From: Naegleria gruberi
Taxonomy: Eukaryota
Assembly: GCA_000004985.1 (NCBI GenBank)
Contig: GG738884.1
Direction: 5' to 3' (one strand)
DNA: 64,000 bases
The notes under the pieces were generated by a model. The model saw only the letters and a program-made list of their open reading frames with translations, ran no database searches and was not told the DNA's origin. Positions within the stretch are counted from its first letter, which is position 1, and each line of letters starts with the position of its first letter. A program made the translations under genes and the position numbers. Shown in pieces: positions 952-45,602 of the stretch.

Positions 952-3018
952 TTATCTAACTCTTGGAGGTTTGTAATTCGAAAAGGCAACTTTAACAGCA
1001 ACAACCTCTCCTTGATGAATCTTGTACAGACATGGATAAGCTCCATCACCATTTCCACACATTGAAAATAATCCATACGGGAATAGTATTAATTGCTTAT
1101 CAGATGATTCGTTCAAAATTCCATTCACTACCTCATACCAATCCATACTTTCTTGTTTCGTATTCTTGAAAAGAGATGCATCTTCGAATTTATCACCATC
1201 AATAATTCCAACTCCATGATCAATTCCAATAATATTTGAGACATGCCATCCATGACGAATTTCCTGATTGAAAAGGTCAAAATCAGAGTCAAAGATATTT
1301 CCAGGAGTTTCCCAATCCTTCTCAATTTCTGGATGATCTTTTGCATATTCATTGTTGTAGAGTAAAATTTGTTTTGGTAAACGTGGATTCAATTGAGTTG
1401 CTGTCCAGACACCATTTTTAACATTTTCAATTAAGGCACTTTCGTCCTCTCTATCAGTTGTGAAATCAATAACTTTTAACTTTCCAGAATCTACTTGAAT
1501 TTCATTACTTTCCATCATACATAACCAATCTTCATTCAAGTCAACCTTTGGCTCTTCTTCAGATTCTATATTGGATTTTTTTGGTTCTAAAATACCAAAG
1601 GCATGATCTGTCTTTCGTCCAATAAAAGATGTTCCTTTTGATCTTTCTCTCCACATTCCATATTTCAAGCAACCATCTTCAATATCATATACGAACCCAT
1701 AGTCATCTGAACCTGTATAGAGTGGTGCACCCAAGTAATTAGAAAACTCTTTCACACTTGTCATTTCTATATAATTTTCACTGCATAATTTTGGATATTT
1801 GGTCTTGCAATTGATTCCTCGAGTGATGTGAAATTTTGAGAGTTTTTCTGATTGATCAATAGCATGAATGTATTCTCCTCTAAATGAAGGAAAGTGTTTT
1901 TTCAACTCATCCTTACTTTGAATAGTAATGCTTGGATGTTCCTTCCCCAATTGATAGGTTTTAAATGAGAATTCTCGATTAATTTCCTCTCTAGTCCAGT
2001 AAGGAATTTGTTTGACTGCATTATCATCAATATGAATAGCATTACAATCTAAACCTTTGAAAGCCAATATAGAATTTGATTTTTCACTCCATCCAATAAT
2101 TTCTTCTCTTGGATAGAAAGAATTCTTCTCCAAAATGCATTGAATTTTGCCACTTTCTATTGGAGAGTTTTTAGGAGCTGGTTTATAACTCAGAATTTGA
2201 GAATTGCAGAATAGGATAATTCCATATTTTTCTGAAAGTCCAATATAATTAATGTCACTTTGCCATGGTAAATGATCAATGACGCTTAATTGATTATTCG
2301 AATCGAATATAATTTCTACCAATCTTCTATCACCACAAACCATTGCCTGTATTGTCTTATCTTGCTTATATGGAATGAATTTATGACTTGTAAAACCATT
2401 GGAAATTACACTGCAAAACATTGAAGTATCATTAATAATAAACTTTTCAAATTCTCTCTTTTCCCTTTCGAATAAATAAAAGAATTGTTGATAATACAAG
2501 CCACACACTGCATACTTTCTGCAGCTTTGAACATTTTCACATGGAATAAAACACGTAAGTTTCTCACGAAGATCCTTATCAAGTACAATCTTTTTAGTTT
2601 CGAATTTCCTTGATGTAAAATCAACTAATAGAAAATCAGATCTGGTTGGCGTACCAAGAAGAGCATGTCCATCAAATATTCCAACACAATAAAAAACCTG
2701 TTCATTGCCAATGTCAATATTTTCAATTTTTTGATCTTTGAAAAGGAATAACTTGTTATCGGAAACTATTATTCCCTGGACACATGTGGAATCTAATAAA
2801 TGGCTTTCTGTGTCCATGTGGAATGATGCATAACCTTGTCCTTCTGTTATTGTCCATTCTTGTAAAATATTTTGATTCTCATCAATGTGAAGTAATTTAT
2901 TGCCACCATCTTGTTGCTGAATGACGTAATTTGATGAGTGACAGAAGAGAAAAGTTCCAGGTGGTGTGAATTGCATTTTTTTTTGGTTGTTTCTTTTCAA
3001 ATATTGGCGCCGCCACAA
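952..3018 (-). CDS. Hypothetical 688-aa protein, W- and D-rich, with no recognisable domain
   Basis: Single uninterrupted 2067-nt ORF with coding-like composition. Its start lies only 47 bp downstream of the stop of the ABC gene on the same strand. I could not assign a domain from sequence alone. Confidence 0.5.
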   Translation of the reverse strand: MWRRQYLKRNNQKKMQFTPPGTFLFCHSSNYVIQQQDGGNKLLHIDENQNILQEWTITEGQGYASFHMDTESHLLDSTCVQGIIVSDNKLFLFKDQKIENIDIGNEQVFYCVGIFDGHALLGTPTRSDFLLVDFTSRKFETKKIVLDKDLREKLTCFIPCENVQSCRKYAVCGLYYQQFFYLFEREKREFEKFIINDTSMFCSVISNGFTSHKFIPYKQDKTIQAMVCGDRRLVEIIFDSNNQLSVIDHLPWQSDINYIGLSEKYGIILFCNSQILSYKPAPKNSPIESGKIQCILEKNSFYPREEIIGWSEKSNSILAFKGLDCNAIHIDDNAVKQIPYWTREEINREFSFKTYQLGKEHPSITIQSKDELKKHFPSFRGEYIHAIDQSEKLSKFHITRGINCKTKYPKLCSENYIEMTSVKEFSNYLGAPLYTGSDDYGFVYDIEDGCLKYGMWRERSKGTSFIGRKTDHAFGILEPKKSNIESEEEPKVDLNEDWLCMMESNEIQVDSGKLKVIDFTTDREDESALIENVKNGVWTATQLNPRLPKQILLYNNEYAKDHPEIEKDWETPGNIFDSDFDLFNQEIRHGWHVSNIIGIDHGVGIIDGDKFEDASLFKNTKQESMDWYEVVNGILNESSDKQLILFPYGLFSMCGNGDGAYPCLYKIHQGEVVAVKVAFSNYKPPRVR

Positions 3019-15829: not shown

Positions 15830-18334
15830 ATGTCATACGGTCGATCTAAGAAGAAGAGTATTTTCGGAGGCTTTTTTAAAAGTATGTTTTTTCAAAATAT
15901 TGACATTCAATTAATTATTATCATCATTAAATACTTAAATTATTTAAATATTTTGTAAACTATTTAATAGGTAATGACAATGAAGTAAATTTGGAAGATT
16001 ATGCTCTCAGTCAATGGACTACGCAAATGGTAGTTTCTTGGTTAAAAGACCAAGGACATGATAAGAAGGTAATTTTATATCTTTAATATTATATGTTATA
16101 TAGTTAAATACTATTTTGTAAACTATTTAAAAATTACACCAACAACAACAACAATATAACAAAAAAAAACGGAAATATAATTGGACATTTTCATCATATG
16201 ATTTTACAACAACAATAACAAAATTCCAAAAAAAACCATATCATTGTAATAATATTTAAATATTTTAAATATTAAATAATATTTAAATATTTTAAATATT
16301 AAATAATATTTATAGGTTTACAAAATATTTGAAAAGAACAAAATAACAGGAGCTTTCTTTTGTCAAAATGTAACCAAAGCAGATATCATCCGTTTAGGAT
16401 TTACACCTGGAATGTCAATCACACTTCACAATCAAATTGAAAAATTAATTGAAAGAATGAAATCCATCAATCCCTATAATGTAATTCTCAGTAGTAGACC
16501 ACATCATCCAAGTAATACTACAAATAATCAGAGTTCAAATAGTATTGCTAGTTCAAGTTCTTTGAGTTTATCTTCTAGAAATAGTATGAAATATGATGGT
16601 GCTGCTTTGGCACAATTGAGTGGATTGAATGGAGTTGATCCAAAGGATTCGAATAATGTGTTATTGACACCACCTCGTCCAAGTTTAGTTTCGAAAGGTT
16701 CGACAGGAAGTATTATGGCACTCACAACACAAACTTCACCACTCAATATTTCACAATCATCTCCAGGATTTTCTGAAAAGGATATTCCAATGTTTGCTCA
16801 TCATCAACGTAAATTTTCAATGGCAATTCAAAATCAAGGTCCATTAACATCAACAAATGGTGAAGAGAATGTGTTTGTTGAACCTGCTTATTCTTCAACT
16901 GGAGCATTGTCAATTGCAGATATTGAAATTGAGGATGATTACTTTTTGAAAATGGAAATGGAATCATTTACTGTGGGTAGCAAACAAGAAGAAGAGAAGG
17001 AACTTCAAGAATTCCTTTCTGAACCAACTGTTGCCGGTGAAAATACTCCATCAGTTGTCGATCAAACTCCATCCTCTCCTGGAACTAATAGTCCAACAAG
17101 TGGAAACTCATCACCAATTAGTACAACTAGCACCAGTAGTGTTGCAAATAATAGTTCCAGTAATAATATCATTTCATCGGCATCTTCACCAACAACCAAT
17201 TCAAAATACTTGTTGGTTCCTGTTGCTCCAATGGAGAAAGTTCCAGAAGAATATGCAGCTGCCTATGAATTTTGCCTGACCAATCTGAGATTACTTCCAT
17301 TTGAAGTGAATAATATCAAAGCAGTAGCTCAGGATTTGGTTATTCCAGAAAGATTCATGTTTAAATATTGTAATATCAAACATTATATGCCAGATGATGA
17401 TGAAGACGAAACTGGTTCTGAAAGAGCATCAGTTGTCAGAACAATGACCAAGACTTTTTTGAAAGTACAATTTGTTATCAATGCTACAGATCGTGGTGTT
17501 TGGTTTAAAATGCAGAGACAATATAAGAATCAACTGAAAGGATACAAACCACACAAATTCGGATCTTTCTATCCAGCTCTTTTAATTGGACCATTCCTTT
17601 TCGAATATACATCACATGGTTTTGCATTGGTGAGAATTTCCAAATCAAAGAGAGTTGTAGGTCATGAAATCACAACAATTACAGGTGCTGATAAGGTGAA
17701 GGAATTACTTCAAAAGGTTTCACAGGTGTGCTGTGAATTCAATGGTTCACGAAAGTTTGACATTCAAAAGAATAATCCAATGAGCTTTGTCTATGCAGTT
17801 TTGGATAAACTCAAAATTAGAAAATCAATTGAAAATCACTTAGGAAAAGGTTGCATCAAAGCTTTCATTCAAAATTTGGAAAAATTTGGATATTACAGCA
17901 TGACACTCAATTTACCAAAACAATTAGCAACCTTGTTAGGAAAGGAAGAATATATCATTGACAGCCATAAGGACTTGGATGAACTTCATATTAATATTCA
18001 AACTAACTTCCCAGAGTACTTTGATGTTGAAGGTAAAATGGATGAAACTCTCTTACAATCATTTGACATTTCATTCTGGTATCTCCATCATGAAAATAAG
18101 ACAGTTGAAGATTTCAAACCTGCATATTCTGGAAAAATCTGTAAGTGTCCATTCAACATGTTAGAAAAGCACCCAATTGATATGATTGAAAGCGTATCAA
18201 AGTCCAATTACCGAGGTGCCAAACATCATATGCAAAATGTTCTGCCAACGAGACCAGCTTATGGGCTCGCCTCTGTGTCTTCATCTGCTAACTTGACTGA
18301 AATGGGATCACCAACAAGTGAAACCAAGTGTTGA
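15830..18334 (+). CDS. SAM (sterile alpha motif) domain protein with a long S/T/N-rich C-terminal region. Three exons: join(15830..15881,15971..16068,16316..18334).
   Basis: Exon 1 (MSYGRSKKKSIFGGFFK) ends AAAAG|GTATGT. Exon 2 (...NDNEVNLEDYALSQWTTQMVVSWLKDQGHDKK) ends AAG|GTAATT. Exon 3 starts after TATAG and reads VYKIFEKNKITGAFFCQNVTKADIIRLGFTPGMSITLHNQIEKL..., completing a SAM fold pattern (W..V..WL......Y...F....I.G..L..L...DL..LG....GH). Splice phases are consistent. Confidence 0.6.
16256..16315 (+). repeat. AT-only tandem duplication inside intron 2 of the SAM gene
   Basis: The unit ATATTTAAATATTTTAAATATTAAATA is repeated twice consecutively. Confidence 0.5.
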
Positions 18335-18455: not shown

Positions 18456-20498
18456 TTATCTTCTGTCCTTCTTACCAATCGTTGTCTTACCACTGAACAA
18501 GTGCTTTGGCATCATATTGTAAACAACGTGATCTGTTTCAGCACGTTTACCTTCAGCTTGTATTGTCTTAACCTTCTTATTACGCAAATCAACAGCAGCA
18601 GCTTGCTTCTTTGGATCTTTGATACCAGCAAACTTACCAATCTTGGCAACAAGAGGATTGTGAGGTGTCAAAGTACGAGTTCTCTTACCGAGAGCAGTGT
18701 CATCAATATCAACAGAATCATATTCAGCAGCAGCACGCTTTTCAGAAGCACTTCTATTCATGGCCATCTTGCTTTCACTTCTGGCTCTAGCACCAACACT
18801 CGAAACAGCAAGCTTGTGAGTTCTACCTGATGAAGTAGTTCTAGCAACTGAGTTGGATCTAGCCTTATCCAAAGCTTCTTCTGGAACACCTCTGTTCTTA
18901 AGTTCACCAACAATTGACTTCAAATCAATTGGTTTATCCTTTCTTGTCAACTTAGGATGGTTAGTATTCTTATTATACTTGTTAGTTTGAATGATAATTG
19001 CCTTCTTATCAACAATCTTTTGGTAGTCATCTTCTTCATCAGAGTCAACAAAGTATTCTTCGTCGGCATAGTTAACACCTCCTTCGAATCCACCTTCTTC
19101 TCTGAGTCTTTCTTCTTCTTCAGCTTCGAGTTCTTCCAATCTCTTTTCAATTTCTGGATCCACAAAGTCAGCAATATTCTTTCCGTTAATAAATTCTGGA
19201 ATAATATCATATTTCCATTCTTCGTTCTTTAAAAGATAATGCTTCTTATAATCTGGCATGTAAACACCAGAACCACCTCCTTCATTTTCAAGATGTTTTT
19301 CAGTGATTCTTTCGTCTTCCATTTCATTTTCGATATTTCTCTTCAAAATGACGCTTTCTGGGATTTGTGGCACTCTTGTAATGTCATCTCTCTTCTTTGG
19401 AAGAGCCAAGTGAACTCTGTTCAAAATATTTTCAACTGACTTCTTACCATGACTCATCTTAGCTTCAACTCTGTTTTGGAGCAACAAATCACAAGCTTTA
19501 GTTTTAACTTCATTCAAACCAGATTGGTCAATGTTACTGATAGCAAGCATATCACTACACATATCAGCAACTTCTTGCAACATCTTCTTGTGTAAATCGC
19601 TCAATTCGTCATATTTAACCAAGTCAACCTTTGTTAAAACCAACAAAACTGGTTTACCAGCAAAAAGTGGTTTGACATTCTTGAAAAGGTCACATTGTTG
19701 TTGAATGTTGTATCCACAAGTTTCACTCATATCTAACAAATATAAAATAGTAGAACGCAAGTGAGCCATAGCTGTTATACTTTGCATTTCAATTGTGTTA
19801 CGTTGTTCAAGTGGATGGTCCAAAATACCTGGTGTATCAATCAATTGCCATTTCAAATAACGATATTCCATATGACCAACAAACAAGGATTTGGTTGTGA
19901 AAGGATAAGGTTGAACATCAACTTGAGCACGTGTCATATTATTCATAAAACTAGATTTACCAACGTTTGGATAACCAACTAGAATCAAAGTACGTGATGA
20001 TGGATCAATAGAAGGTAAACGAGCCAAGTGTTGTCTGACTTGTTCAAGATAGATAAGTGATGAATTTTGTTTAGTCAATACTGTAATCATTCTACCCAAA
20101 GCAGCTCTCTTCAATTGTTTGCAACGATATAAAGAGTCACCATATTTAAGTAAACGAACATAATCTCTACCAATAGCATCAACAAGATTTCTGCAGGTAC
20201 TTAATTGACCCAAAGCAAGCTTGTAGTGATCCTTATCATAGAGAACGTTCATCAAATCCTCATAGAATGGGTGAATATCTCCCAATCGTGGGAATTCATC
20301 AAGGATGAGAGTAATTTTATCGTGGATGGCTTGTTGACAAAATTTAACTTTTCTCATGTAGAATCTTCTAATACGATTGATAGCATATTGAGGGTGAATT
20401 TCGGTTGGTGTTTTTCTTTGTGTTTTCGAAAGAACAATGTCCATAAATTCTCTTCCGTTAGGAACTGGTGTAATCTTCTTAAAATTATAAACGACCAT
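18456..20498 (-). CDS. NOG1: Nucleolar GTP-binding protein 1 (NOG1/GTPBP4 family)
   Basis: 680-aa single exon with a NOG1 N-terminal domain and an OBG-type G domain: G1 GYPNVGKSSF, DTPG, and TKVD (NKxD variant). The C-terminal basic NOGCT-like region is present. Confidence 0.9.
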   Translation of the reverse strand: MVVYNFKKITPVPNGREFMDIVLSKTQRKTPTEIHPQYAINRIRRFYMRKVKFCQQAIHDKITLILDEFPRLGDIHPFYEDLMNVLYDKDHYKLALGQLSTCRNLVDAIGRDYVRLLKYGDSLYRCKQLKRAALGRMITVLTKQNSSLIYLEQVRQHLARLPSIDPSSRTLILVGYPNVGKSSFMNNMTRAQVDVQPYPFTTKSLFVGHMEYRYLKWQLIDTPGILDHPLEQRNTIEMQSITAMAHLRSTILYLLDMSETCGYNIQQQCDLFKNVKPLFAGKPVLLVLTKVDLVKYDELSDLHKKMLQEVADMCSDMLAISNIDQSGLNEVKTKACDLLLQNRVEAKMSHGKKSVENILNRVHLALPKKRDDITRVPQIPESVILKRNIENEMEDERITEKHLENEGGGSGVYMPDYKKHYLLKNEEWKYDIIPEFINGKNIADFVDPEIEKRLEELEAEEEERLREEGGFEGGVNYADEEYFVDSDEEDDYQKIVDKKAIIIQTNKYNKNTNHPKLTRKDKPIDLKSIVGELKNRGVPEEALDKARSNSVARTTSSGRTHKLAVSSVGARARSESKMAMNRSASEKRAAAEYDSVDIDDTALGKRTRTLTPHNPLVAKIGKFAGIKDPKKQAAAVDLRNKKVKTIQAEGKRAETDHVVYNMMPKHLFSGKTTIGKKDRR

Positions 20499-20862
20499 TG
20501 TTATATATTAGTTTTTTTAGTGGTAGTATTAATGATGAATGATGGAGAGAAGAGGTTTTACTTTGTGTGCGGAGGTGTATCTGTTTTTACTAGTACAAAG
20601 TAAAAGGAGGAAGATATGAGGGTGGTTGTTATTTTTTTTCTCGACAGAAATTTTTTGAAAAGGCTCTCAACAAAATGTTGCAAGTTTTTCTTCTTGGCAA
20701 TTGTTGAAGTTATTTTGAAAGATTCACGAGTTGATGATGATTGTGTGAGGTGCAATGGAAAGTAATCAGAAAAGAATGGAAGGAAATTATATAGATAGAA
20801 TTTTACTATATTGTTAAATAGTTCATGATCTAATTTGAACTAATTTTGTGTTCAATTATTAT

Positions 20863-22660
20863 TTACTTATCGGAAGAATGAAGAGCATCAACGGAAGTAT
20901 CAATATTGTTAATCTCTTGCAATTCTGTCATTAGTAGAGTCATAAAGAGATCAGTTTTGGAGAAGACTCTCACATTGGATTGCTTGTCGTAAGGAGTTTT
21001 CTGCAAATTAACAATACACATCAGATTATTGACATTCATCTTGGGTAATTGAGCAGCTGGATTCACGAGCATTGAGGTTCCAAGAACAATGGATAGATCA
21101 CATTTCTCTGAATGTGAGATGGCACTCTCAAGTTCTTTTGGTGGCAAGGTTTCATTGAAATGTACAATGGTGTCAATTAGTTCACCTCCACAACTTTCAC
21201 ACAAACTACCAGTCAAGTGATCTCTAAAGTTTTCAACAGTTTTACAAACATCATATCCTCTCAAATATTCCTTCTTGCATTTCTTACATACTTCAAGGAA
21301 GCAATTACCATGTAATTCAGATAAGTGAGCTGGTTCAAGACCACTTCTTCTATGAAGACCGTCCACGTTGGTTGAAATAACAAACTTTACCAAACCAATC
21401 TTGACAAGATGAGAAACAGCATAGTGTGTAAATGTTGGAAGAGCTTGTTCAATTTCAATGTTCTTAATTTCATTAGCTTTTCCTTCATTGGTTAAAGTCC
21501 AACATCCTTTTGGTCCACGATAATCTTTTCATTGTGAGTATATAATTGACTATTGGAATAAGAAACTTACCTGGAATTTTGGCACTTGTGGAAATACCTG
21601 CTCCTGAATAAATACAACAGTGTTTAGAATTCTTAATTAGATCTGCCATTTGTTTTGCCTTTTCTTGTACAACTTGTTCTTCTTCTTCATATTCCTTGGC
21701 ATCTTCAGTAAGTCCTGTCACTGCTCCAATTCCTTTTCCAGAACCAACATTTTCACCAAAACCAATACAATCAAGAAGATGCTTTTCTTTTGTTTCAGTC
21801 TTGTTTAGTTTCTTGTCAAAATTCTTAATTTGATCCAAAAAGGAAGAAGAGACTGACTCTGTGGTAACTTGTGGAGTTGGAGTAGTTGTAGCATTAGAGA
21901 TTGGTTGAGAAGGAGGGACCGGAACACTTGTGCTCTTTGTAGTTTCACCCTTTTTCTTAATAACAGGTGTCATGAAATTTTTCATTTTCTTTTCAAACTC
22001 TCTTTGAATTGCATCCTTCTTTTCCTTCTCTTCAAAAGTTGAGACGTAACCACTTCCCTCACGAATAGCCACAACTGTTTCTAGACTAATTGTGTTTGGG
22101 CTGTTTGAAAATCTTGAAATGAACTGAAGCGAATTTTTCATATCTTTTCCCAATTTCATTTCCGACAAGGATGGTATATCAATTGTGAATTCTTGAAGAA
22201 TTTTGCCACTATCTGTTTCAATAGAGAACTTGGTATTCCTAATATTGTAATTGGAAACAATCTTCATTTGTGAAAGAATATCATTAAGATCAACAATGTT
22301 GCTAAATTGTTCTTCAGAGATGATAAATGCAATTCTGCAATTTTTCACAGAATCTAATTGAAGAGTTTTGACCTTTTTAACTCCAATAGATAATTTACAA
22401 TCTCTGCATTTCAAAAATTCAACAAAACCAGTGGTGATTGATTCAACATCAACAACCACAGTTGTATCCTTATTATCTTCCATTATAATTTTCATACATT
22501 TTTGTGCTTGAAGAAGAAGTGTTGATCTTTCGCATTGGGTAACATATACCAAATCTTGAGGAGAGAATTTGCTTTCTACCCTTCCCGATGAGTCATCTAC
22601 AACTCCCTTGATCATAAAAGGGGATTTTGGGGTGAAATTTAAGGTAGGTAATCTAGTCAT
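20863..22660 (-). CDS. Sirtuin (Sir2 family, class IV SIRT6/7-like catalytic core) with a roughly 380-aa N-terminal extension. Two exons: join(20863..21524,21571..22660).
   Basis: A 46-nt intron (21525..21570, GTAAGTTTC...GAAAAG) splits the NAD-binding motif: exon 1 ends ...GAGISTSAKIP and exon 2 continues DYRGPKGCWTL, reconstituting GAGIS..IPDYRGP.G.W. Downstream are the Zn-binding cysteines CKKCKK...CESCGG and VISTNVDGLHRRSG. Confidence 0.8.
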
Positions 22661-22977
22661 TTTTTTAATGTTAAAAAAACTTGATTATTTACCATTATTC
22701 AAATGCTGATAAAGGAGAGTTCATATTTCCTTGATCGATTACTGTCAAGTATAATTCATCTCTGCAGATTATTTATTGCTAAGGTAATTACCTTTTTTAA
22801 ATCTGAAAAGAATGCACTAGGCAATTCATGCTTGGAGAATGCTGAAAAAGAGAAAAATAAAATATGAATCCTCTTTTATTTTTGTATCTGAAATGAGGTA
22901 TTTCAAATAACTCATTTCTTCTTTGTATATTTCAAATAAATAAAACAGTGCTGCAAAAGAGAAATAAAATATGAAAT

Positions 22978-23050
22978 CGCCCACCGTGGGGGTCGAACCC
23001 ACGACCACAAGGTTAAGAGCCTTGCGCTCTACCGACTGAGCTAGACGGGC
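22978..23050 (-). tRNA. tRNA-Lys (anticodon CUU), copy A
   Basis: 73-nt cloverleaf. Acceptor GCCCGTC/GGTGGGC (two G-U pairs), D arm GCTC-AGTCGGTA-GAGC, anticodon arm CAAGG-CTCTTAA-CCTTG, T arm GTGGG-TTCGACC-CCCAC, discriminator G. Identical in sequence to copy B. Confidence 0.9.
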
Positions 23051-23452
23051 TACATTAACTACATCTATACTATTAATTAACAAGCCTTAGTGTGGCCTTA
23101 CAATAAGTAAGACATAGGTTGAAATTATGGTATGATTATGGTTACAATATATATTTGAAATTATTAAAGAACCTACAATTGCTTTTAACTTTACAATCTT
23201 GGTATTGCCTATTTGATTTGATGCTTTCTTCAACACCTCCACTTTTCAGGAAGAAAGTAGTAATATGGTGCAACAAGATGAAGTCTGATTCAGTATCACT
23301 TTGTACAAACGTAACAATCCAGCATTAAATTCATCTCTGGAAGAGAATGAAGTTTATCATTATCAAGCACCTCAAGCACAAGATTATATTTCATAGAAGA
23401 ATGTGATACTCTTTTTTTTATTATTGAATTTAGAAACCAAACAAATAATAGC

Positions 23453-25336
23453 TTGTTGCCTGTTCTTTCAAAAACTAGTAGTTGTGGAAAAAATGGACAG
23501 ACCAAAAAAATGGCTCAACACCTTCCTCATGACATTCTTCATCACATTTTTACGAGCTATGCATCACTTGATCAATATTTAAATGGTCTCATGCTTGTTT
23601 GTAGCCATTGGTATGAAACAACAAAATACGAAAGGTTTTGGTTAGTAACTTTGGACAAACTTCTCTGCACTGAAATTCAAGCTATAAAAGATCCTCGACA
23701 ATTCGGAGGAGAACAAGTGCAACATTTCCCATTCAATGAACATGTTGAGAGGGTGTTGGCCATAACTTTCGAGGCCATCGGTAGAGAAAGAGAAAGATAT
23801 CTCAAGAAATTGCTGAATAGAAGGCAACATTTAATTATCGACATGAAACCATTCAAAAAGAGGAAAGAGCAAAATAGAGATATTTATGGAGAAACATTCA
23901 AGTGGAGAACTGTTCAGTTCATCAGAGAAAAAAGAAGGAGAATTATGGCTTTGGAAATGGTGATAATGGCAATGGAATTTGAGAGTGATGTTTTGAATGA
24001 GCAATTATTCGAAGCAAAGTGGAATGAAATTATTGAATTTATTCGTGAAAATGGAATTTATGATTTGAAAACTGTCTCAAATTTGAGAATTTTACAATCA
24101 TCTACAACTATTTTTCATATTCTACTGAAACAATGGAAGATACATTTTAAAAATCAATTTGTAGATTCTAAATGTCTTGAGAAATTTATTCATTTCTTCC
24201 TTTGTGAATGTAATTTAAATATTTCTCCCTATGTAGATCTATTGGTTAGTATGGAAATGAATATTCAACGATTAAACAATAAGGTATTCATCAAAAAGCT
24301 AACTAATGAGGTGAAATCTAGTAGAAAAACAGGAGTACCACCAAAGACATTATTGTTATTGATTCAAAATTGTAACATGTACCGACAAGATGAAGCGCAA
24401 TTTATAAGAATATTTATTGAAATGTTGAAAAACAAAAAACATTTTCATGATCAAATGGTTAATCCATATCTTAATCAGTATTTAGGATCGGTTGTCCCTA
24501 GTATTTTCTGCATAGAACTATATTTAAAGGATTTGAATATCACTCAGTGCAAAGATTATAAGCATTACAATATGGTAAATTCTATCTGTAGAGACATAGA
24601 GTATGTATATAGTGAGGAAGTTGTGAAAATTATACAGAGAGCTCATTCTGAGTTTGGACTAGGTCTAAATATTCCACTTCCTGAAAGCTTAGTTCATGAA
24701 AAAAACAAATTGCCACTTCTTAAATTCCTGATTGAAAATGGTTCAGATGTAAATTCACCTCCTCCAGGAACACTTTATTGCTATGGATATACTTTGATTC
24801 AATATATTCGACAATGTAGATCAGGTAGTTCAACAAGTGATGAAATAATTTATCTAGTCGAACACGGTGCTGTTCTCCCAGAGGATTCTAATAGTTACGG
24901 CATAAGAGTAGATAATGTATTTGATGCATATTTTGATAGAGAAGAAAAGTATTTACCAACCTTAAAGTTTCTTGTTGAAAAATTTGGAAAGAGATTAACA
25001 AGTGGAACTGAGTGGTTGATGAATATTCACAGAACGCGGAGTAATGGCTCAACAATTGAAGGATTTTGTCAAGTTTTAATGTATTATGAGAGTTTGGATG
25101 TTTTACGTGATTTACTTAATAAGGGAGGTTTTCTTCTACTTGTGAAAATCTACTGTTTTTGGGATGAATATTATGCAAGGGAATCAGATGTTGGGAAAAA
25201 GAAAGAGTTAAGGGAATTCCTTAAAAGTAAGCTTGACATTGTAATTGATGATACTCTTATAGAAGTTTGTATTGAGGATTCCAAAGAAATCAATGAAGAA
25301 AATGGTTTCTATTTTCCAAACGATGACGAATTTTAA
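23453..25336 (+). CDS. F-box domain protein (627 aa)
   Basis: N-terminus LPHDILHHIFTSYASLDQYLNGLMLVCSHWYETT fits the F-box pattern (LP.[ED]I...I...L....L.....VCK.W). The rest has no clear domain. Confidence 0.5.
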   Translation: MLPVLSKTSSCGKNGQTKKMAQHLPHDILHHIFTSYASLDQYLNGLMLVCSHWYETTKYERFWLVTLDKLLCTEIQAIKDPRQFGGEQVQHFPFNEHVERVLAITFEAIGRERERYLKKLLNRRQHLIIDMKPFKKRKEQNRDIYGETFKWRTVQFIREKRRRIMALEMVIMAMEFESDVLNEQLFEAKWNEIIEFIRENGIYDLKTVSNLRILQSSTTIFHILLKQWKIHFKNQFVDSKCLEKFIHFFLCECNLNISPYVDLLVSMEMNIQRLNNKVFIKKLTNEVKSSRKTGVPPKTLLLLIQNCNMYRQDEAQFIRIFIEMLKNKKHFHDQMVNPYLNQYLGSVVPSIFCIELYLKDLNITQCKDYKHYNMVNSICRDIEYVYSEEVVKIIQRAHSEFGLGLNIPLPESLVHEKNKLPLLKFLIENGSDVNSPPPGTLYCYGYTLIQYIRQCRSGSSTSDEIIYLVEHGAVLPEDSNSYGIRVDNVFDAYFDREEKYLPTLKFLVEKFGKRLTSGTEWLMNIHRTRSNGSTIEGFCQVLMYYESLDVLRDLLNKGGFLLLVKIYCFWDEYYARESDVGKKKELREFLKSKLDIVIDDTLIEVCIEDSKEINEENGFYFPNDDEF

Positions 25337-25437
25337 TAATATTTTCAAATAGCATTCATTACAATGAAACTCTAATCGAACAAAAACATAGATGAGCACG
25401 TACAAATTCAATTTTCTCCTCAAAAGAATCAAAAAAA

Positions 25438-26577
25438 ATGCAAACACACCAATTCACCACCGTTTTGACCCGATCACAAGTGCAACAATGTCTAACCTAT
25501 GAAGATGCCATGCTTGCTAATAAGAATTTATTCATTTCCGATCTGAATAAACATTTAATTCCAATGCGAACTGTCATGGAAATTTCAAATCATGGACCAA
25601 CTTTGTTCATGCCATGTTATTTGAAAATGTCAAGCCATGATGACGATCAGCACCATTTGGGATTAAAAATTGTATCAGTGAGAAGTAATAATCCTGTTAA
25701 ATATTCATTAGATTCTGTGAATGGAACAATTTCCTTGTTGAATCATGAAAATGGGTCTCTAATTTGTTTGATGCATGCCAATGATATTACTGGAGTGAGA
25801 ACTGCTTGTGGAAGTGCTCTTGCAGTTGAAAAATTATTAAACTCATATTCTGGATTCAGTTCAACAGTTGAAAGAATCTATGAAAATTTAGGAATTATGG
25901 GATGTGGAACTCAGGGGAAATGTCACATGTTTGCCATGCTCAGAATTGCAAAGAATGTTAAAAGAGTAATCTTGTGGAACCAGACAGAAGAAAGAGGAAG
26001 AAATTTAGTTAGAGAACTAGTGGAGAATTTCAAAGCTTCAGAAGATTTACCTTTCAAATTTGTGGCAAGTGAAAGTTCTCAACCTTTGGAAGATTCACAT
26101 TCGACAAGAATTATTGAAATATCTTTCAATTCAAATGCCAACCAAGTTTCTAACCAATCAGATATTATCTGTTGTTGTACCAATTCTTCAAAGCCATTCT
26201 TTGAAACAAATCAAGTAAGAGATGGTACAATTATTACATGTATCGGATCTTATAAGCCATTCATGCAAGAAGTTGAAAGCCAACTGGTTACCAAAAGCAA
26301 GGTAATTGCTGATTTGAAAGAGGCAGTATTGGAAGAATCAGGTGATTTGATAATTCCACTGCAAGAAAACTTAATTTCACACGATCATATTCAATGTGAA
26401 TTGAGTCAACTGATACAATTCACCTCAGAACAAGTGAATGAAAAATTCCAAATTGGAAAGGATATTATAATTTATAAGAGTGTAGGATTTGCTGCTCAAG
26501 ATTTAGCAGTAGCTCACCAAATTTATCAACGAGCACTCTCTCTCAAAGTTGGTCTTTCCATTAATCTAAACGAATAA
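25438..26577 (+). CDS. Ornithine cyclodeaminase / mu-crystallin family protein (ketimine reductase-like)
   Basis: 379 aa. Family-typical TGVRTACGSALAVEKLL followed by the Rossmann motif LGIMGCGTQGKCHMFAML. Fold length is consistent with OCD/CRYM. Confidence 0.7.
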   Translation: MQTHQFTTVLTRSQVQQCLTYEDAMLANKNLFISDLNKHLIPMRTVMEISNHGPTLFMPCYLKMSSHDDDQHHLGLKIVSVRSNNPVKYSLDSVNGTISLLNHENGSLICLMHANDITGVRTACGSALAVEKLLNSYSGFSSTVERIYENLGIMGCGTQGKCHMFAMLRIAKNVKRVILWNQTEERGRNLVRELVENFKASEDLPFKFVASESSQPLEDSHSTRIIEISFNSNANQVSNQSDIICCCTNSSKPFFETNQVRDGTIITCIGSYKPFMQEVESQLVTKSKVIADLKEAVLEESGDLIIPLQENLISHDHIQCELSQLIQFTSEQVNEKFQIGKDIIIYKSVGFAAQDLAVAHQIYQRALSLKVGLSINLNE

Positions 26578-26878
26578 AACTCCAGTAAATTTACACGTGT
26601 AGTAAACCTTTTGATGCAACCTTGTTTATCAAATGTAGTGTGTTTAAAGCTATCATTTAAAGCTAACTCATTCCTCTAGAAATCACGCGTGATTTCTGGG
26701 AATTGAACACACGCATGGTGGTAAGACTGTGCTATGGCACCCTTATCAAAATAACAAAATCTATTTTCATGCAACACTTGTTGGGTGCAGGAAAGGAGTC
26801 GAGAGAAGGATGCAGTGTTGCACTCTAAAAAATCAATAAAGAAGTGTCAATTCTATTAGAAAACGAAAATAAAACAAA

Positions 26879-27817
26879 ATGAAAAAAACAACCACTTTCA
26901 ATTACAGCTCTTCACAAACAAGCACCTCTTCCGGTGTTGGAGTTAACATGAATTTATCAGAATTTGGTAAATTATTAGGTGGCCAACAACCAACCCAACC
27001 AAATTATCAGCAACCACAACCAGTTCAACCAATTTATCAACAACCAAATTACCAACAACCACCACAATCGTATCAATACCCACCACAACAATATCAACAA
27101 CCAAATTATCAGCAACCACAACCATATCAACCAGTTCAGCAACCAAATTATCAACAACCAGGATATCAATATCCACCACAACAATATCAGCAACCAAATT
27201 ATCAGCAACCACAACCATATCAACCAGTTCAGCCATATCAGCAACCAATTTATCAACCAACTTATCAGCAACCACCAGTTCAGCCAACTCAACCAAAAAA
27301 GCCAACTAAAGCTCCAACTCAACAACCAAAAACGTCAACTCAACCAAATTATCAGCAACCACCAGTTCAACCATATCAACAACCAATTTATCAACAGCCA
27401 ACTGCATTTACACCACAAGTCAGTAGTACCAGTGTTTTAGGTAAGCAAATGATTGATGCATGTAAGAAGAATGCATACACCAGTGACAAATTAAAGACAA
27501 TTACCACTTATGCTTCATCACAATGTTGTCCAATCAGCGTTTCTGAGCTCAACACCATTTTGAAAATGTTCTCATATGTTTCTGACAAGTTGCAAGCATT
27601 GTCAATTTTGAGTAGCTCAAATAATATTGGACCAATGACCACTGCTCAAGCAGCTGAAATAATGAAATCTGTTTCCTATGTCAGTGATAGAATGAAAATA
27701 TTGGAATATATTGTGACCAGTATTTATGACAGAAAGCAATCAACTGAAACAATTACCAAAATGTTTTCCTATTCATCAGATCAACAAAAAGCCAGAGAGT
27801 TATTGTTAAGTAAATAA
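26879..27817 (+). CDS. Q/N/P/Y-rich low-complexity (prion-like) protein with a structured C-terminal triple repeat
   Basis: 312 aa. Residues about 40-180 are degenerate tandem repeats of QQPNYQQPQPYQPVQ. The C-terminal approximately 120 aa hold three copies of a roughly 30-aa motif (MFSYVSDKLQALSILSS / SVSYVSDRMKILEYIVTS / KMFSYSSDQQKARELLLS). Antisense ORFs 26943..27305 and 26975..27325 are repeat artefacts. Confidence 0.6.
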   Translation: MKKTTTFNYSSSQTSTSSGVGVNMNLSEFGKLLGGQQPTQPNYQQPQPVQPIYQQPNYQQPPQSYQYPPQQYQQPNYQQPQPYQPVQQPNYQQPGYQYPPQQYQQPNYQQPQPYQPVQPYQQPIYQPTYQQPPVQPTQPKKPTKAPTQQPKTSTQPNYQQPPVQPYQQPIYQQPTAFTPQVSSTSVLGKQMIDACKKNAYTSDKLKTITTYASSQCCPISVSELNTILKMFSYVSDKLQALSILSSSNNIGPMTTAQAAEIMKSVSYVSDRMKILEYIVTSIYDRKQSTETITKMFSYSSDQQKARELLLSK

Positions 27818-27881
27818 ATTGTTAAAAGTTACTCGCAATCCCCTTAATGATTATTAAGGTAGTATTTTTACAAGTAATGTA

Positions 27882-27954
27882 GCCCGTCTAGCTCAGTCGG
27901 TAGAGCGCAAGGCTCTTAACCTTGTGGTCGTGGGTTCGACCCCCACGGTGGGCG
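27882..27954 (+). tRNA. tRNA-Lys (anticodon CUU), copy B
   Basis: Same 73-nt sequence as copy A, in inverted orientation 4.8 kb away. Confidence 0.9.
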
Positions 27955-28083
27955 ATTTCATATTTTAGTTTCGCTTTTTGTTCTCTTTTATTTATTTTTG
28001 TTCTGATATGAAGAAGTATCTACAAATAACTCATTTCTTTTTATTATTTCAAAAACTATTTAATTAAAAAATATTTGAAATTA

Positions 28084-28089
28084 AAAAAC
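28084..28089 (-). terminator. Pol III terminator T-run of the SRP RNA gene
   Basis: TTTTTT on the minus strand directly after the last conserved 7SL helix. Confidence 0.6.
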
Positions 28090-28408
28090 ATTAGTCTGAC
28101 TCCCAGATTTCACTCTCTGATAGCTCATGCTCAGTTCTGCAATCTGACCATCCTACAGTGTGAAGGCTATGATTTGCTCAGTTATCCTGCCTCAACCGGT
28201 TCACCTTTCATTAGGACCCTAGTTTCTCCTTATTCATGGGGAGATACTATGGTCACACCGCTATTGGTCAGACAGAACATCGTCACCATATTGCTAACAA
28301 AGGAATGAGTCTGAAGAACCATCCCTTTGCCTGACGCTGTGGCAGAGAACCATAACAGCTACCTCCCTACAGTAGCCCAGCTTATCTATTGGGAACGATC
28401 AGTCGTTA
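28090..28408 (-). ncRNA. Signal recognition particle RNA (7SL/SRP RNA)
   Basis: The minus-strand read contains, in the same order as human 7SL: CTGGGCTACTGTAGGGAGGTAGCTG (Alu-domain CCCAGCUACUCGGGAGGCUG), AATATGGTGAC (AAUAUGGUGACC), and the S-domain helix-8 block GGTGAACCGGTTGAGGCAGGATAACTGAGCAAATCA (human GGUGAACCGGCCCAGGUCGGAAACGGAGCAGGUCAAAAC, with a GNRA loop GATA and an AGCA motif). Local GC is about 48%, against AT-rich flanks. It ends at a T6 run (pol III terminator). The 5' end is placed to within about 15 nt by spacing from the Alu-domain motif. ORF-track ORF 28075..28308 overlaps it and is spurious. Confidence 0.78.
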
Positions 28409-28550
28409 GTTGAATGGATGGATTAAAAAATAATTACAAGCATTTGGTTTTTAAAAATAAACAATATTAATTTGAACAATCACACAGATTGAGTTTGAGG
28501 AATATTGCAAGTAACAGTGAATACTAATATTAAGAAATAAAATAAGTTTA

Positions 28551-30130
28551 CTATTTTTGATCTAACAATGATTGTATGGTTTGTCTCCTCTTAGAAAACA
28601 TTTCCTTAATCTCTTGTATTTGCTTTTGTTCTTCTTCATCCATATTATTCAATTGTCTCTTCAATTCATCTACATTGAGGGCAGAATACAACTTTTTAAG
28701 TTGTTCCATTTCCTCATTATTTACTACTTTTGGTGTGTTATTTTCAACTTTTTTAGGTTGATGTTTCACCATAGTTCCACAATCATCATCATCATCACTG
28801 TCATCACTGTCAGTGCCACTATCAGATGAAGAATCATCCTTCTTCACTGGTTTCTTTGTTATTTTTGTTGTTCCTGTTTGATTATTTGTAGGCTTGTGTT
28901 GGACTAATGTGTCATATCCTTCATCAGAGTCAGAATCACTGTCACCAGAACTATCCGTATCAGTTTCTTCAGTATCACTTCCATTGTTATCATCATTATC
29001 TTCGGCCTTTTTCTTGAAATAATTAAATCTTCCTCCTGCTTCAGCAAATATTTGATTCATCTTTTCAATTAATTCTTGTAAAATTTTAGTTGATTTGGCT
29101 CGTTGAATAAATTTGTGTTTAAGAAGATTTTTAGATGATGGTCTTTCAGCTGGATCTCTTACTAAACAATAAGCAACAAAATCTCTAAATTCTTCAGACC
29201 ATTTTTCAGGGTTTGAAAGTGTTGGTGGAGGTCTGTTTGGAATCATGAAAATTGCACGCATTGGATGAATTCCATGAAGAGGTGGCTTTCCTTCAGCCAT
29301 TTCAATGGCAGTAATACCCAGTGACCAAACATCAGCAGTTCCGTCATATTCAGTTTCTTGAATTACTTCAGGTGCCATCCACTGTTATAATAATAATAAT
29401 AACAACACGTTAATATTATTTAATGAAGGTAATAATGTTAAATATAAAACAGTTAAAATCATTAAAATACTTACATAAGGAGTACCTATCACTGTTCTTC
29501 TCTTGGAAATTGTATTATTTAATTGTGCACTAACACCCTAAAGAAGAAAATCGGATCAAGTTGTAAATACAATGTATACTTACGAAATCAGCTAGTTTTA
29601 CATCTCCTTCATCAGTGAGAAGAATGTTTCCTGCCTTTATATCACGGTGAATCTTCTTTTGAGAGTGTAAATAAACAAGACCTTTCAATGCTGATGAACA
29701 AATAGCAGCAATTTGTGGTTCAGTCAACATTGGTCCAAGAACTGTAAGTAAATCCTGCACGGAACCTCCTCCACAATATTCAATAGCAATTTGGAGTTCT
29801 TGATCTTGTTTGTATGCTCCATAATAATTTACAATATATGGTGATTCACAAGCCTTTAAAATGTTAATTTCCTTCTCAACTTCGGCAATATCATTTTCAA
29901 CTGGTACACATTTCAATGCATAAATATGACCATCGTTTTTATTCATCACTTTCCAAACAACACCATATGAACTAAGTATCATCATAGTAAAAAAATATTA
30001 ATTTATAATAATACAACATTGTTTATATTATTAATAATCTAATGAAAGAGATCTCTTACCCTTCTCCCAACAACTCTAATCTTTGATACACAGTGTTGGT
30101 ATCAACTCCCGTTACATATAATGAAGACAT
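28551..30130 (-). CDS. STE20-family (MST/Hippo-like) Ser/Thr kinase with a C-terminal SARAH-like coiled coil. Four exons: join(28551..29381,29475..29537,29584..29971,30060..30130).
   Basis: Exon 1 (MSSLYVTGVDTNTVYQRLELLGEG) ends GG|GTAAGA. Across an 88-nt intron this reconstitutes the Gly loop GEGSYGVVWKV. Exon 2 holds VAIK-like ALKCV, HRDIKAGNILL and ends at ...KLADF|GTAAGT. A 46-nt intron leads to exon 3 (GVSAQLNNTISKRRTVIGTPY). A 93-nt intron leads to exon 4 (WMAPEVIQETEYDGTADVWSLGITAIEMAEGKPP...). The C-terminus ELKRQLNNMDEEEQKQIQEIKEMFSKRRQTIQSLLDQK resembles the MST1/2 SARAH helix. The acidic S/D-rich linker is typical. Total 450 aa. Confidence 0.85.
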
Positions 30131-30552
30131 TTTTTCTATTATTGTTCTCTCTTTTCATTTTATCTAAAGGATAAGAAGACAAATGATGATGAGCCAATCA
30201 GAAGTTTTCTCGCAGGAGAGCATCACCCACTCTGTTTATTAAATAGATTAACCACTGTCCGTAAAGGGTGATGTTGTGATTGAGGGATTATCAAACGGAT
30301 ACTTTGCAATGTGATAAATAGGCATTCGAATGACTTTTTTGCTGTGATGTTTTGTAGCATCCCAAAATAATATCAGGAAGTTGAATAAATATTTAATAGT
30401 GAACTGATTAGCAAGCAATTTTTAATTCTAACATGATGTGCTAAGAGAAGTGCATTGAAACTCATAAAAAGATCAAATCATCTTATAAATTTCTTCTTTG
30501 AAGGTGGATTGTTTTAATAATAAAATAACGCAATTAATATTAATAAATAAAA

Positions 30553-30957
30553 ATGAGCAGCAACATTGGAATACCTATCAAGCTTTTACATGAAGCCGAA
30601 TCACATATAATATCACTGGAAACAAAATCGGGTGAACTCTACAGAGGAAAACTTATTGAAGCCGAAGATAGTATGAATGTACAACTTGTGGATGTTACTG
30701 TAACACATAGAAATGGCCAACAATCTGCCATGAATACTGTATATATTAGAGGAAGTAAAATTAGATACTTTGTTTTGCCGGATATTCTTCAAAAAGCACC
30801 AATGTTTAAAGTTGTTGATTCAACTGTAAAAGGTCAAGGAAGAGGATATGGTTCTCAAACTAAAGTACATAGAGGTTCAGGACTTGGACTCGGATATGGT
30901 GTCGGTAGAGGAAGAGTTACAGCTCGAGGAGGTGGACGAGGTGGATCATCTAAATAA
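30553..30957 (+). CDS. SNRPD3: Small nuclear ribonucleoprotein SmD3
   Basis: 134 aa. [50 protein letters not shown]...[24 protein letters not shown] is near-identical in pattern to human SmD3 ([40 protein letters not shown]...[22 protein letters not shown]). It ends in an RG/GRG-rich tail. Confidence 0.85.
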
Positions 30958-31101
30958 TTTCATCATTATATTTTACAATCATCATTATCATCAATTTATT
31001 TATTCTTCAATGTCTGCTCTCTAGATCAATGTGTATTAATAATAAATCATCACATCAACAACTAGTTCTCAAATAATGGATGAATAGTAATAATTTATTG
31101 A

Positions 31102-45529: not shown

Positions 45530-45602
45530 TGCTGACGGACGGGATCGAACCGGCGACCAATGGCTTATTAGACCAACGCTCTACCGACTGAGCTACGCCA
45601 GC
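45530..45602 (-). tRNA. tRNA-Ile (anticodon AAU)
   Basis: 73 nt. Acceptor GCTGGCG/CGTCAGC (one G-U), D arm GCTC-AGTCGGTA-GAGC, anticodon arm TTGGT-CTAATAA-GCCAT with anticodon AAT at 34-36, T arm GCCGG-TTCGATC-CCGTC, discriminator A. Confidence 0.85.

Follow-up and report, generated by a model that had tools for sequence, protein, structure and literature searches.

According to our analysis, the two tRNA-Lys(CUU) genes that bracket three protein-coding genes in this stretch of Naegleria gruberi DNA (64 kb in full, hereafter the window) are probably the products of an old inverted duplication of a tRNA unit of approximately 200 bp, followed by a minute inversion of an AT-rich element, E, in the flank. 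The genes concerned are:

22978–23050, minus strand: tRNA-Lys(CUU) copy A, 73 nt (ARAGORN; Rfam RF00005)
27882–27954, plus strand: tRNA-Lys(CUU) copy B, 73 nt, identical to copy A (ARAGORN; Rfam RF00005)
23453–27817, plus strand: enclosed block of three genes (open reading frames; Pfam)
23453–25336, plus strand: F-box-like gene (PF12937; Pfam)
25438–26577, plus strand: OCD/mu-crystallin gene (OCD_Mu_crystall, PF02423; Pfam)
26879–27817, plus strand: Q-rich DUF4476 gene (Pfam)
28084–28380, minus strand: SRP (7SL) RNA gene (Rfam RF00017)

Lys CTT was assigned to both tRNA copies by ARAGORN, each scored 66.4 bits against RF00005 (gathering score 29), and pairwise alignment found the same base at 73 of 73 positions. 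The genes are divergent: their 5′ ends face each other across 4,831 nt. Together with the protein domains found by Pfam, these results bear out the earlier note, which had described an identical, outward-pointing pair enclosing three genes. A canonical A box, TAGCTCAGTCGG, and B box, GGTTCGACCCC, can be read in both copies, and in both trailers the first TTTT run, at +10 to +13, provides a Pol III terminator. Judged by fold, anticodon, promoter boxes, and terminator, both copies are predicted to be functional nuclear tRNA genes.

The intergenic spaces measure 318 and 402 nt around the left-hand tRNA and 64 and 129 nt around the right-hand one, and the nearest neighbors outside the block (sirtuin, NOG1-like GTPase, SRP RNA, and kinase) are all on the minus strand. 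Within the block, the OCD protein shows 100% identity to a Naegleria gruberi protein. The SRP RNA gene, which was absent from the earlier note, gave a full-length model match of 96.8 bits (gathering score 70); it is convergent with tRNA-Lys B and has a T6 terminator immediately at its 3′ side. It is the context of the right-hand tRNA and lies outside the duplication. Apart from this gene and the two tRNAs, an Rfam E-value scan of positions 20000–31000 found no other non-coding RNA in the flanks.

The flanking segments are as follows:

22934–22977, minus strand: 3′ trailer F of copy A (ATTTCATATTTTA...TTTTATTTATTT), collinear with the tRNA (alignment)
27955–27998, plus strand: 3′ trailer F of copy B (alignment to trailer A)
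23051–23072, minus strand: weakly shared 5′ flank of copy A (TAGTAT...TAATGTA), identical at 15 of 22 positions to 27860–27881
22840–22870, minus strand: second copy, without a tRNA, of the first ~30 nt of trailer A (repeat search)
22871–22936, plus strand: element E at locus A together with the repeat CTCTTTTATTT that bounds it on the left; inverted relative to tRNA A (blastn)
22938–22948, plus strand: right arm of the inverted repeat bracketing E at locus A (partner 22871–22881)
27983–28053, plus strand: element E at locus B, the first 15 nt of which double as the end of trailer F (blastn)
28067–28080, plus strand: right arm of the weaker inverted repeat bracketing E at locus B (partner 27986–27999)

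The repeat search recovered a single inverted repeat, 22962–23072 against 27860–27970, with a length of 111 nt and 93% complementarity. On the 3′ side, trailer A (22977–22934) aligned with trailer B (27955–27998) over approximately 44 nt with 80% identity (37/46), so that the flank of about 45 nt previously described as inverted along with the tRNA is indeed collinear with it. On the 5′ side, only TAATGTA and a few further bases are shared, and in local alignment this similarity by itself was no better than the window background. The second trailer copy lies 109 nt further downstream and is identical to the first at 26 of 31 positions; it scored highest among the non-self matches of the trailer across the window (22, compared with at most 16 for the background). 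Neither the trailer nor the 5′ motif was found at the tRNA-Ile gene of the window or at the tRNA-Glu gene of a related kinase locus, which suggests common descent, as opposed to a general flank signal, as the source of the similarity. As in a paralogous duplication, the similarity continues past the tRNA gene into the flanks, above background.

The orientation changes at the end of the trailer. A second element, of about 50 nt, had been reported to occur in the same plus-strand orientation at both loci; blastn of one locus against the other showed that this element, E, is real and slightly longer (~65 nt). Positions 22871/22875–22936 aligned plus/plus with 27983/27991–28053 at 81–83% identity over 66–74 columns (51 bits, E ~1e-9 to 4e-9), and this was the top match of either flank in the window. 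Inside E, the exact 17-mer CAAATAACTCATTTCTT occurs at the two E sites only in the 64-kb window. The 50-nt core of E scored 28 in the plus/plus orientation vs. 8 when collinear with the tRNA, and the maxima of the null sets were 16 (2,000 shuffles) and 14 (9,702 real window tiles); the flank similarity therefore exceeds the AT-rich background. At both loci E starts 44–45 nt from the tRNA 3′ end, adjoining the collinear trailer. The orientation switch falls inside CT(C/G)TTTTATTTATTT, copies of which stand on both sides of E at locus A as an inverted repeat, with a weaker counterpart at locus B. These bracketing repeats, a short T-run/A-run at both loci, are 11 nt long and 91% complementary with arms 56 nt apart at locus A, and 14 nt long and 79% complementary at locus B.

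The core of E at locus A (22890–22918) is a quasi-palindrome with 14-bp arms (22890–22903 and 22905–22918), and its hairpin has a predicted energy of −8.7 kcal/mol (z = −5.3). This hairpin is not conserved at locus B, where E has no stable hairpin (fold z = +0.87). Quasi-palindromy as the cause of the shared orientation was rejected in view of the two orientation scores and of the presence of the hairpin at locus A only. Another AT-rich match, at 16250–16349, has no relation to E and consists of a simple tandem repeat. When E and its bracketing repeats are read on the minus strand, they follow a Pol III gene of that strand at each locus, namely tRNA-Lys A at locus A and the SRP RNA gene at locus B. 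Metagenome scans with the tRNA 3′ end plus the start of the trailer, and with the tRNA 3′ half alone, gave 0 matches each.

The flank identity of 77–84% corresponds to a Jukes-Cantor distance of ~0.23, with a divergence of ~17–19% in E and ~20% in the trailer. Under neutrality, identity at 73 of 73 tRNA positions would have a probability of ~8e-8 (0.8^73). This points to purifying selection or gene conversion acting on both copies, which thus appear to have been kept functional. The divergence of the flanks also indicates that the duplication is old, and neither the rearrangement hotspots raised earlier nor a recent rearrangement finds support here.

We propose that a single DNA-level copying of the unit (roughly 7–22 nt of 5′ flank, tRNA-Lys(CUU), the 44-nt trailer, and the ~60-nt AT-rich E) took place in the Naegleria gruberi lineage and would have placed the copy in inverted orientation a few kb away, with a divergent (head-to-head) pair that now brackets three unrelated protein genes as the outcome. 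Both copies would have stayed functional Pol III genes with zero substitutions, while the neutral flanks would have drifted to ~80% identity. Later, E would have been flipped in one copy, being quasi-palindromic and situated between short T-run/A-run inverted repeats; the flip may have occurred through intramolecular recombination or template switching between the bracketing repeats, i.e., as a minute inversion. The same AT-rich flank would also have gained the ~30-nt trailer duplication and several repeats of 10–12 nt. Short flanking inverted repeats are the usual substrate for minute inversions, which were reportedly described in chloroplast spacers by Kelchner and Wendel in 1996, and quasi-palindrome template switching is said to have been described in bacteria by Ripley. 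Like those cases, E is a hairpin-prone AT-rich segment of ~50–60 nt with bracketing repeats of 11–15 nt and stands in opposite orientation in two homologous copies; unlike them, it belongs to heterolobosean nuclear DNA, the copies are paralogous and not orthologous, and the mechanism is deduced.

The geometry had earlier been attributed to duplication followed by a local inversion of the tRNA-plus-flank unit beside a static element. The duplication and the inversion stand, given similarity far above background and an E bracketed by inverted repeats, but the flipped piece would be E relative to the tRNA and trailer. A flipped E and a flipped tRNA unit amount to the same geometry only when the initial copying of the whole unit was in inverted orientation. 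We infer the order of the events, the mechanism of inversion, and which copy is ancestral; with no syntenic outgroup, the duplication and the flip are not polarized, and with two E copies only, the direction of change in E is not fixed. The need for two events (duplication and flip) counts against this explanation, as does the weakness of the distal inverted-repeat arm at locus B. Moreover, a simple flip leaves the tRNA-less trailer copy at 22840–22870 unexplained, and this copy makes the repeat-E-repeat segment resemble an insertion flanked by a direct duplication.

Comparison with relatives revealed no neighbors shared with the window at the OCD, sirtuin, and kinase loci of N. fowleri, N. 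lovaniensis, Willaertia, and two other relatives. The OCD orthologue loci of N. fowleri (L001 and L002) and N. lovaniensis (L003) have OCD alone in common with the window and contain no tRNAs, and the sirtuin orthologue locus of N. fowleri (L009) has neither a tRNA nor a NOG1-like neighbor. That no tRNA gene lies near the OCD and sirtuin orthologues of N. fowleri or N. lovaniensis supports inverted duplication of the unit and suggests that the tRNA-Lys copies are lineage-specific additions or losses. The loci of the kinase relatives (L004, L005, and L008) have no neighbors in common with the window; L005 carries the tRNA-Glu gene instead, and the sequence of the L004 contig stops 111 nt beyond the kinase gene. 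Two near-identical contigs (L006 and L007, 99.25–99.3%) end inside the SRP RNA gene; the environmental contig with 99.25% identity stops at 28157.

An unlikely alternative is that one event, an inversion of the 4.8-kb block with staggered breaks on either side of one ancestral tRNA unit, also duplicated the tRNA. According to a model derived from Drosophila inversion breakpoints, staggered-break inversion leaves an inverted duplication at both ends, and an inverted duplication of ~200 bp does stand exactly at both ends of the multi-gene block. The three enclosed genes are on the plus strand with minus-strand neighbors on both sides; however, genes of both orientations occur throughout the window, and this pattern, being of little weight, was dismissed as evidence. 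The alternative also predicts that E is collinear with the tRNA at both ends, which is not what we observed, so an extra flip would still be required, and no syntenic outgroup has the block in the opposite orientation. In a variant, the inverted pair would already have been present, and the block would later have flipped between its members, as in yeasts. The yeast precedent comes from Saccharomyces, where, according to a passage of PMC7990762 citing Kellis et al. (2003), all interspecies inversions found were flanked by oppositely oriented tDNAs. Like those inversion ends, the tDNAs of the window bracket a block of a few genes in opposite orientation; the difference is that the yeast inversions were demonstrated by species comparison, whereas an inversion of the Naegleria block is hypothetical.

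It is very unlikely that E and its bracketing repeats (~78 nt, 22871–22948) form a MITE-like, non-autonomous mobile or dispersed element that landed independently, in opposite orientations, ~30–45 nt downstream of each tRNA-Lys gene. Terminal inverted repeats of 11–15 nt at locus A, a direct trailer duplication of ~30 nt that flanks the unit there like a target-site duplication, and the different orientation at the same distance from the tRNA are all in line with such landings. However, a ~30-nt target duplication is far beyond the usual range for DNA transposons. Terminal inverted repeats with a short target-site duplication were not found at every E copy, given that at locus B a direct duplication is absent and the distal terminal repeat is unconvincing. 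Two independent insertions at the same nucleotide would need very strong target specificity, and E has diverged to the same degree as the trailer, as expected if they were copied together. Neither the window nor ~110 kb of sequence from related loci in Naegleria and Willaertia contained a third copy of E, and within this sequence the short dispersed element suggested earlier as an alternative is unsupported. Highly improbable, taken jointly, are the proposals that the 78-nt unit is a new miniature element of Naegleria that inserts, in either orientation, at a fixed site 3′ of Pol III genes, or that the tDNA pair is a boundary, an insulator, or a flip-flop substrate, in which case it would act on the three enclosed genes. 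The reading of the flank similarity as AT-rich background, or as a shared functional tRNA flank signal in place of common descent, is effectively refuted. Short repeats abound in this AT-rich region, low-complexity matches in the window reach 41 bits against the locus B spacer in some cases, and the 5′ flank does not rise above background alone; these points are outweighed by the higher bit score of the E alignment, its core score well above the null maxima, the 17-mer confined to two loci, and the tRNA-Ile and tRNA-Glu flanks that carry none of these sequences. A link to the tRNA-targeting retroelements of dictyostelids had also been raised, but the host is Naegleria gruberi (Heterolobosea), and no retroelement-like ORF, RT, LTR, or poly(A) tail was found in the 64–402-nt spacers beside either tRNA-Lys gene; a TRE- or DGLT-A-like insertion would be expected to show such features, in a host lineage known to carry these elements. 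E resembles TRE5, TRE3, and DGLT-A in position only, at a fixed short distance downstream of a tRNA; unlike these elements, it is ~65 nt long, without coding capacity and without poly(A) or LTR features. The tRNA-Lys spacers are too small for a retroelement.

Inverted duplication of the unit agrees with what has been reported for this genome. N. gruberi has ~924 tDNAs (PMC2888827), and 12 close same-isotype tRNA pairs were counted vs. ~2 expected, 4 of the 12 being antiparallel (PMC2888827, Additional file 2), which indicates that local tRNA gene duplication is commonplace. As in the pairs of Bermudez-Santana et al. (2010; PMC2888827), two copies of one tRNA gene lie near each other here, but they are 4.8 kb apart with three protein genes in between, presumably outside the close-pair clusters of that survey. 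Shared flanks with an internal minute inversion were outside its scope. In the literature on Naegleria tRNA gene organization and repeats, the only specific information we found was the tDNA counts and a remark that synteny between N. fowleri and N. gruberi is low.

Overall, the inverted tRNA-Lys pair is real but ordinary, and it matters little beyond annotation, where the practical gain is an annotated SRP RNA gene at 28084–28380. The pair would provide a clean, datable example of the large tRNA complement of N. gruberi growing by short-range DNA-level copying, and of AT-rich, palindrome-prone Pol III flanks being reshaped by minute inversions. Because small inversions in yeasts are known to arise at inverted tDNA pairs, pairs of this type could conceivably also have a part in the very poor conservation of microsynteny between Naegleria species.

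Two of the three tRNA genes detected in the window by ARAGORN are tRNA-Lys(CUU) genes, and direct comparison showed them to be identical at 73/73 positions. They are divergent: their 5' ends face each other across 4,831 nt. The earlier note had described an identical, outward-pointing pair around three genes; the tRNA calls, the identity, the distance and the enclosed ORFs all confirm it. The minus-strand copy with its flanks is called here locus A, the plus-strand copy locus B, and the AT-rich segment that both share beyond the 3' trailer of the tRNA is called E.

Features of the tRNA-Lys(CUU) pair and its surroundings (positions in the window)
22871-22936, plus strand: E of locus A, 81-83% aligned to locus B on the same strand
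22978-23050, minus strand: tRNA-Lys(CUU) of locus A (ARAGORN; Rfam, 66.4 bits)
23453-25336: enclosed ORF, F-box-like protein (ORF and Pfam)
25438-26577: enclosed ORF, ornithine cyclodeaminase/mu-crystallin (OCD) protein (ORF and Pfam)
26879-27817: enclosed ORF, Q-rich protein with C-terminal DUF4476 (ORF and Pfam)
27882-27954, plus strand: tRNA-Lys(CUU) of locus B (ARAGORN; Rfam, 66.4 bits)
27983-28053, plus strand: E of locus B, 81-83% aligned to locus A on the same strand
28084-28380, minus strand: SRP (7SL) RNA gene (Rfam RF00017, full-length, 96.8 bits against a gathering score of 70)

The block has a Sir2-family gene and then a putative NOG1-like GTPase ORF to its left and an MST/Hippo-like kinase gene to its right, all encoded on the minus strand. 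The SRP RNA gene, absent from the earlier note, is found downstream of the kinase gene, 170 nt from its stop codon, and has a T6 terminator directly after it. This gene and tRNA-Lys B are transcribed toward each other, and the 129-nt spacer between these Pol III genes holds E of locus B. Within the DUF4476 gene, a long degenerate in-frame repeat with QQPNYQQP-type motifs spans 26969-27422 and comprises 10 overlapping members of a 70-nt family.

A repeat search recovered the two loci as one inverted repeat (22962-23072 / 27860-27970; 111 nt, 93%). The 3' trailers align over ~44 nt in the tRNA orientation (ATTTCATATTTTA...TTTTATTTATTT; 37/46 = 80%), with a T4 terminator at +10..+13 inside the aligned part, so the claimed ~45 nt of 3' flank inverted along with the tRNA was recovered. 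The 5' flanks have TAATGTA directly upstream in common and match at 15 of the last 22 nt, a similarity not above the window background in a stand-alone local alignment. E adjoins the trailer directly on its far side at both loci and includes an exact 17-mer, CAAATAACTCATTTCTT, found at only two sites in the 64 kb, loci A and B. Because the plus-strand order is E, inverted trailer, inverted tRNA at locus A and tRNA, trailer, E at locus B, the orientation of E with respect to tRNA and trailer is opposite in the two copies. The shared flanks reflect common descent and not a general tRNA flank signal, because none of their sequences occurs in the flanks of the tRNA-Ile gene (45530-45602 in the window) or of the tRNA-Glu gene on L005, the contig of a kinase relative.

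The orientation of E might have been ambiguous, since its core at locus A is a quasi-palindrome (GAAATGAGGTATTT-C-AAATAACTCATTTC; arms 14 nt, 93%), with a folding energy as DNA of -8.7 kcal/mol (z = -5.3). However, the 50-nt cores of E scored 28 in the plus/plus alignment and 8 in the tRNA-collinear orientation, against a maximum of 16 in 2,000 shuffles and of 14 among 9,702 real window tiles. This rules out palindromy as a source of ambiguity; the discordant orientation of E is real, as the earlier note had it for its ~50-nt element. The flank similarity likewise stands clear of the AT-rich background, and chance similarity is excluded. Locus B has not kept the hairpin (z = +0.87), so nothing suggests that a structure in E is under selection.

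The alignment switches orientation inside the motif CT(C/G)TTTTATTTATTT, which is found on both sides of E at locus A as an inverted repeat (22871-22881 / 22938-22948; 11 nt, 91%); the locus B counterpart is weaker (27986-27999 / 28067-28080; 14 nt, 79%). A minute inversion between short inverted repeats would be expected to show this arrangement. Trailer A has its first ~30 nt repeated without a tRNA at 22840-22870 (minus strand), 109 nt downstream of the first copy and 26/31 identical to it; this is the best non-self match of the trailer in the window (score 22, background maximum 16). At locus A, E is therefore enclosed by the inverted repeats and these in turn by the direct repeats, a geometry that a simple flip does not fully explain. 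An exact 12-mer, TATTTCAAATAA, is present twice inside E at locus A, and TTTTTGTTCT twice at locus B. A palindrome with 25-nt arms (80% complementary) at 28039-28088 covers both the terminal part of E in locus B and the SRP RNA terminator region. An intergenic AT-only tandem repeat of the AATATTTAAATATTTTAAATATTAAAT type is located at 16250-16310; its matches to the AT-rich spacer of locus B, the strongest of their kind, are spurious and arise from the tandem repeat.

The most economical history is one in which DNA-level copying would have produced a second, inverted tRNA unit of ~200 bp, and E would then have turned around in one of the two copies by an exchange between the repeats that bracket it, alongside further slippage and duplications in the AT-rich flank. 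That the shared sequence extends far beyond the Pol III terminator and takes in some 5' flank argues against a retroposed tRNA transcript. It is possible that staggered breaks inverted the block and created the duplication in one event, or that the block was inverted later through the existing pair, for which yeast offers a parallel (Kellis et al., 2003, quoted in PMC7990762); the flip of E would still be required. Independent arrival of a MITE-like element at the two loci is hinted at by locus A, with its inverted repeats and ~30-nt direct repeat, but this direct repeat is atypical in length, the signature is missing at locus B, E and the trailer are equally diverged, and no copies of E were found beyond the two sites of the 17-mer in the 64 kb. 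The suggested link to tRNA-targeting retroelements fails, as the short intergenic spaces on either side of the tRNA genes (318 and 402 nt for tRNA-Lys A, 64 and 129 nt for tRNA-Lys B) hold no retroelement-like sequence.

The flanks also provide a relative age for the duplication. They are 77-84% identical (Jukes-Cantor distance ~0.23), whereas the window and a contig of environmental N. gruberi agree at 99.25% of positions across 1.86 kb; the duplication is thus old relative to strain divergence. By our own arithmetic, 73 unchanged tRNA positions at 20% neutral divergence have a probability of ~8e-8, indicating that both copies were kept intact by selection, gene conversion, or both.

Comparison of the OCD, sirtuin and kinase loci in relatives did not polarise the duplication or the flip. 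In N. fowleri and N. lovaniensis, the OCD locus has OCD as its sole gene in common with the window and contains no tRNA gene; the N. fowleri sirtuin locus also has no tRNA gene, and its neighbours differ from the window, as do those of the kinase relatives (~77% nucleotide identity) and of Willaertia magna. These results agree with the low synteny reported between N. fowleri and N. gruberi (PMC6125883). A 5S rRNA gene, another dispersed Pol III gene beside OCD in a different Naegleria species, lies immediately upstream of N. fowleri OCD (VFQX01000068.1, 9688-9808, minus strand; RF00001, 94.7 bits). Downstream of the kinase, L005 carries tRNA-Glu(UUC) (2611-2682, plus strand), where N. gruberi has the SRP RNA and tRNA-Lys genes, which suggests that Pol III genes turn over at this position. 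Two metagenome contigs, L006 and L007 (ERR1078381 / ERZ929261), are 99.25-99.3% identical to 28157-30016 of the window, so the environmental data set contains an N. gruberi-like strain. L006, the longer of the two, breaks off within the SRP RNA gene, and L007 reaches only 28355, just within the 5' end of the gene; metagenome scans with tRNA-Lys-derived queries gave no matches.

The dictyostelid frame of the earlier note does not apply, because the window belongs to N. gruberi, a heterolobosean within Discoba: the OCD protein is 100% identical to an N. gruberi "predicted protein," the next best matches, N. fowleri and N. lovaniensis among them, are 53-55% identical, and the GC content of 32-37% agrees with the published 35% (PMC6125883). 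Its reading of a duplication with local inversion was broadly right, apart from this taxonomic frame and the retroelement link. The proposed history fits the tDNA complement of the species, with ~924 tDNAs and 12 close same-isotype pairs against ~2 expected (PMC2888827). In line with this very high count (924), loci of N. fowleri, N. lovaniensis and Willaertia totalling 85.6 kb (L001, L003, L008, L009) contained no tRNA gene, compared to three in the 64-kb window. The tRNA-Lys pair with its flanks is an ordinary outcome of tRNA gene family turnover.
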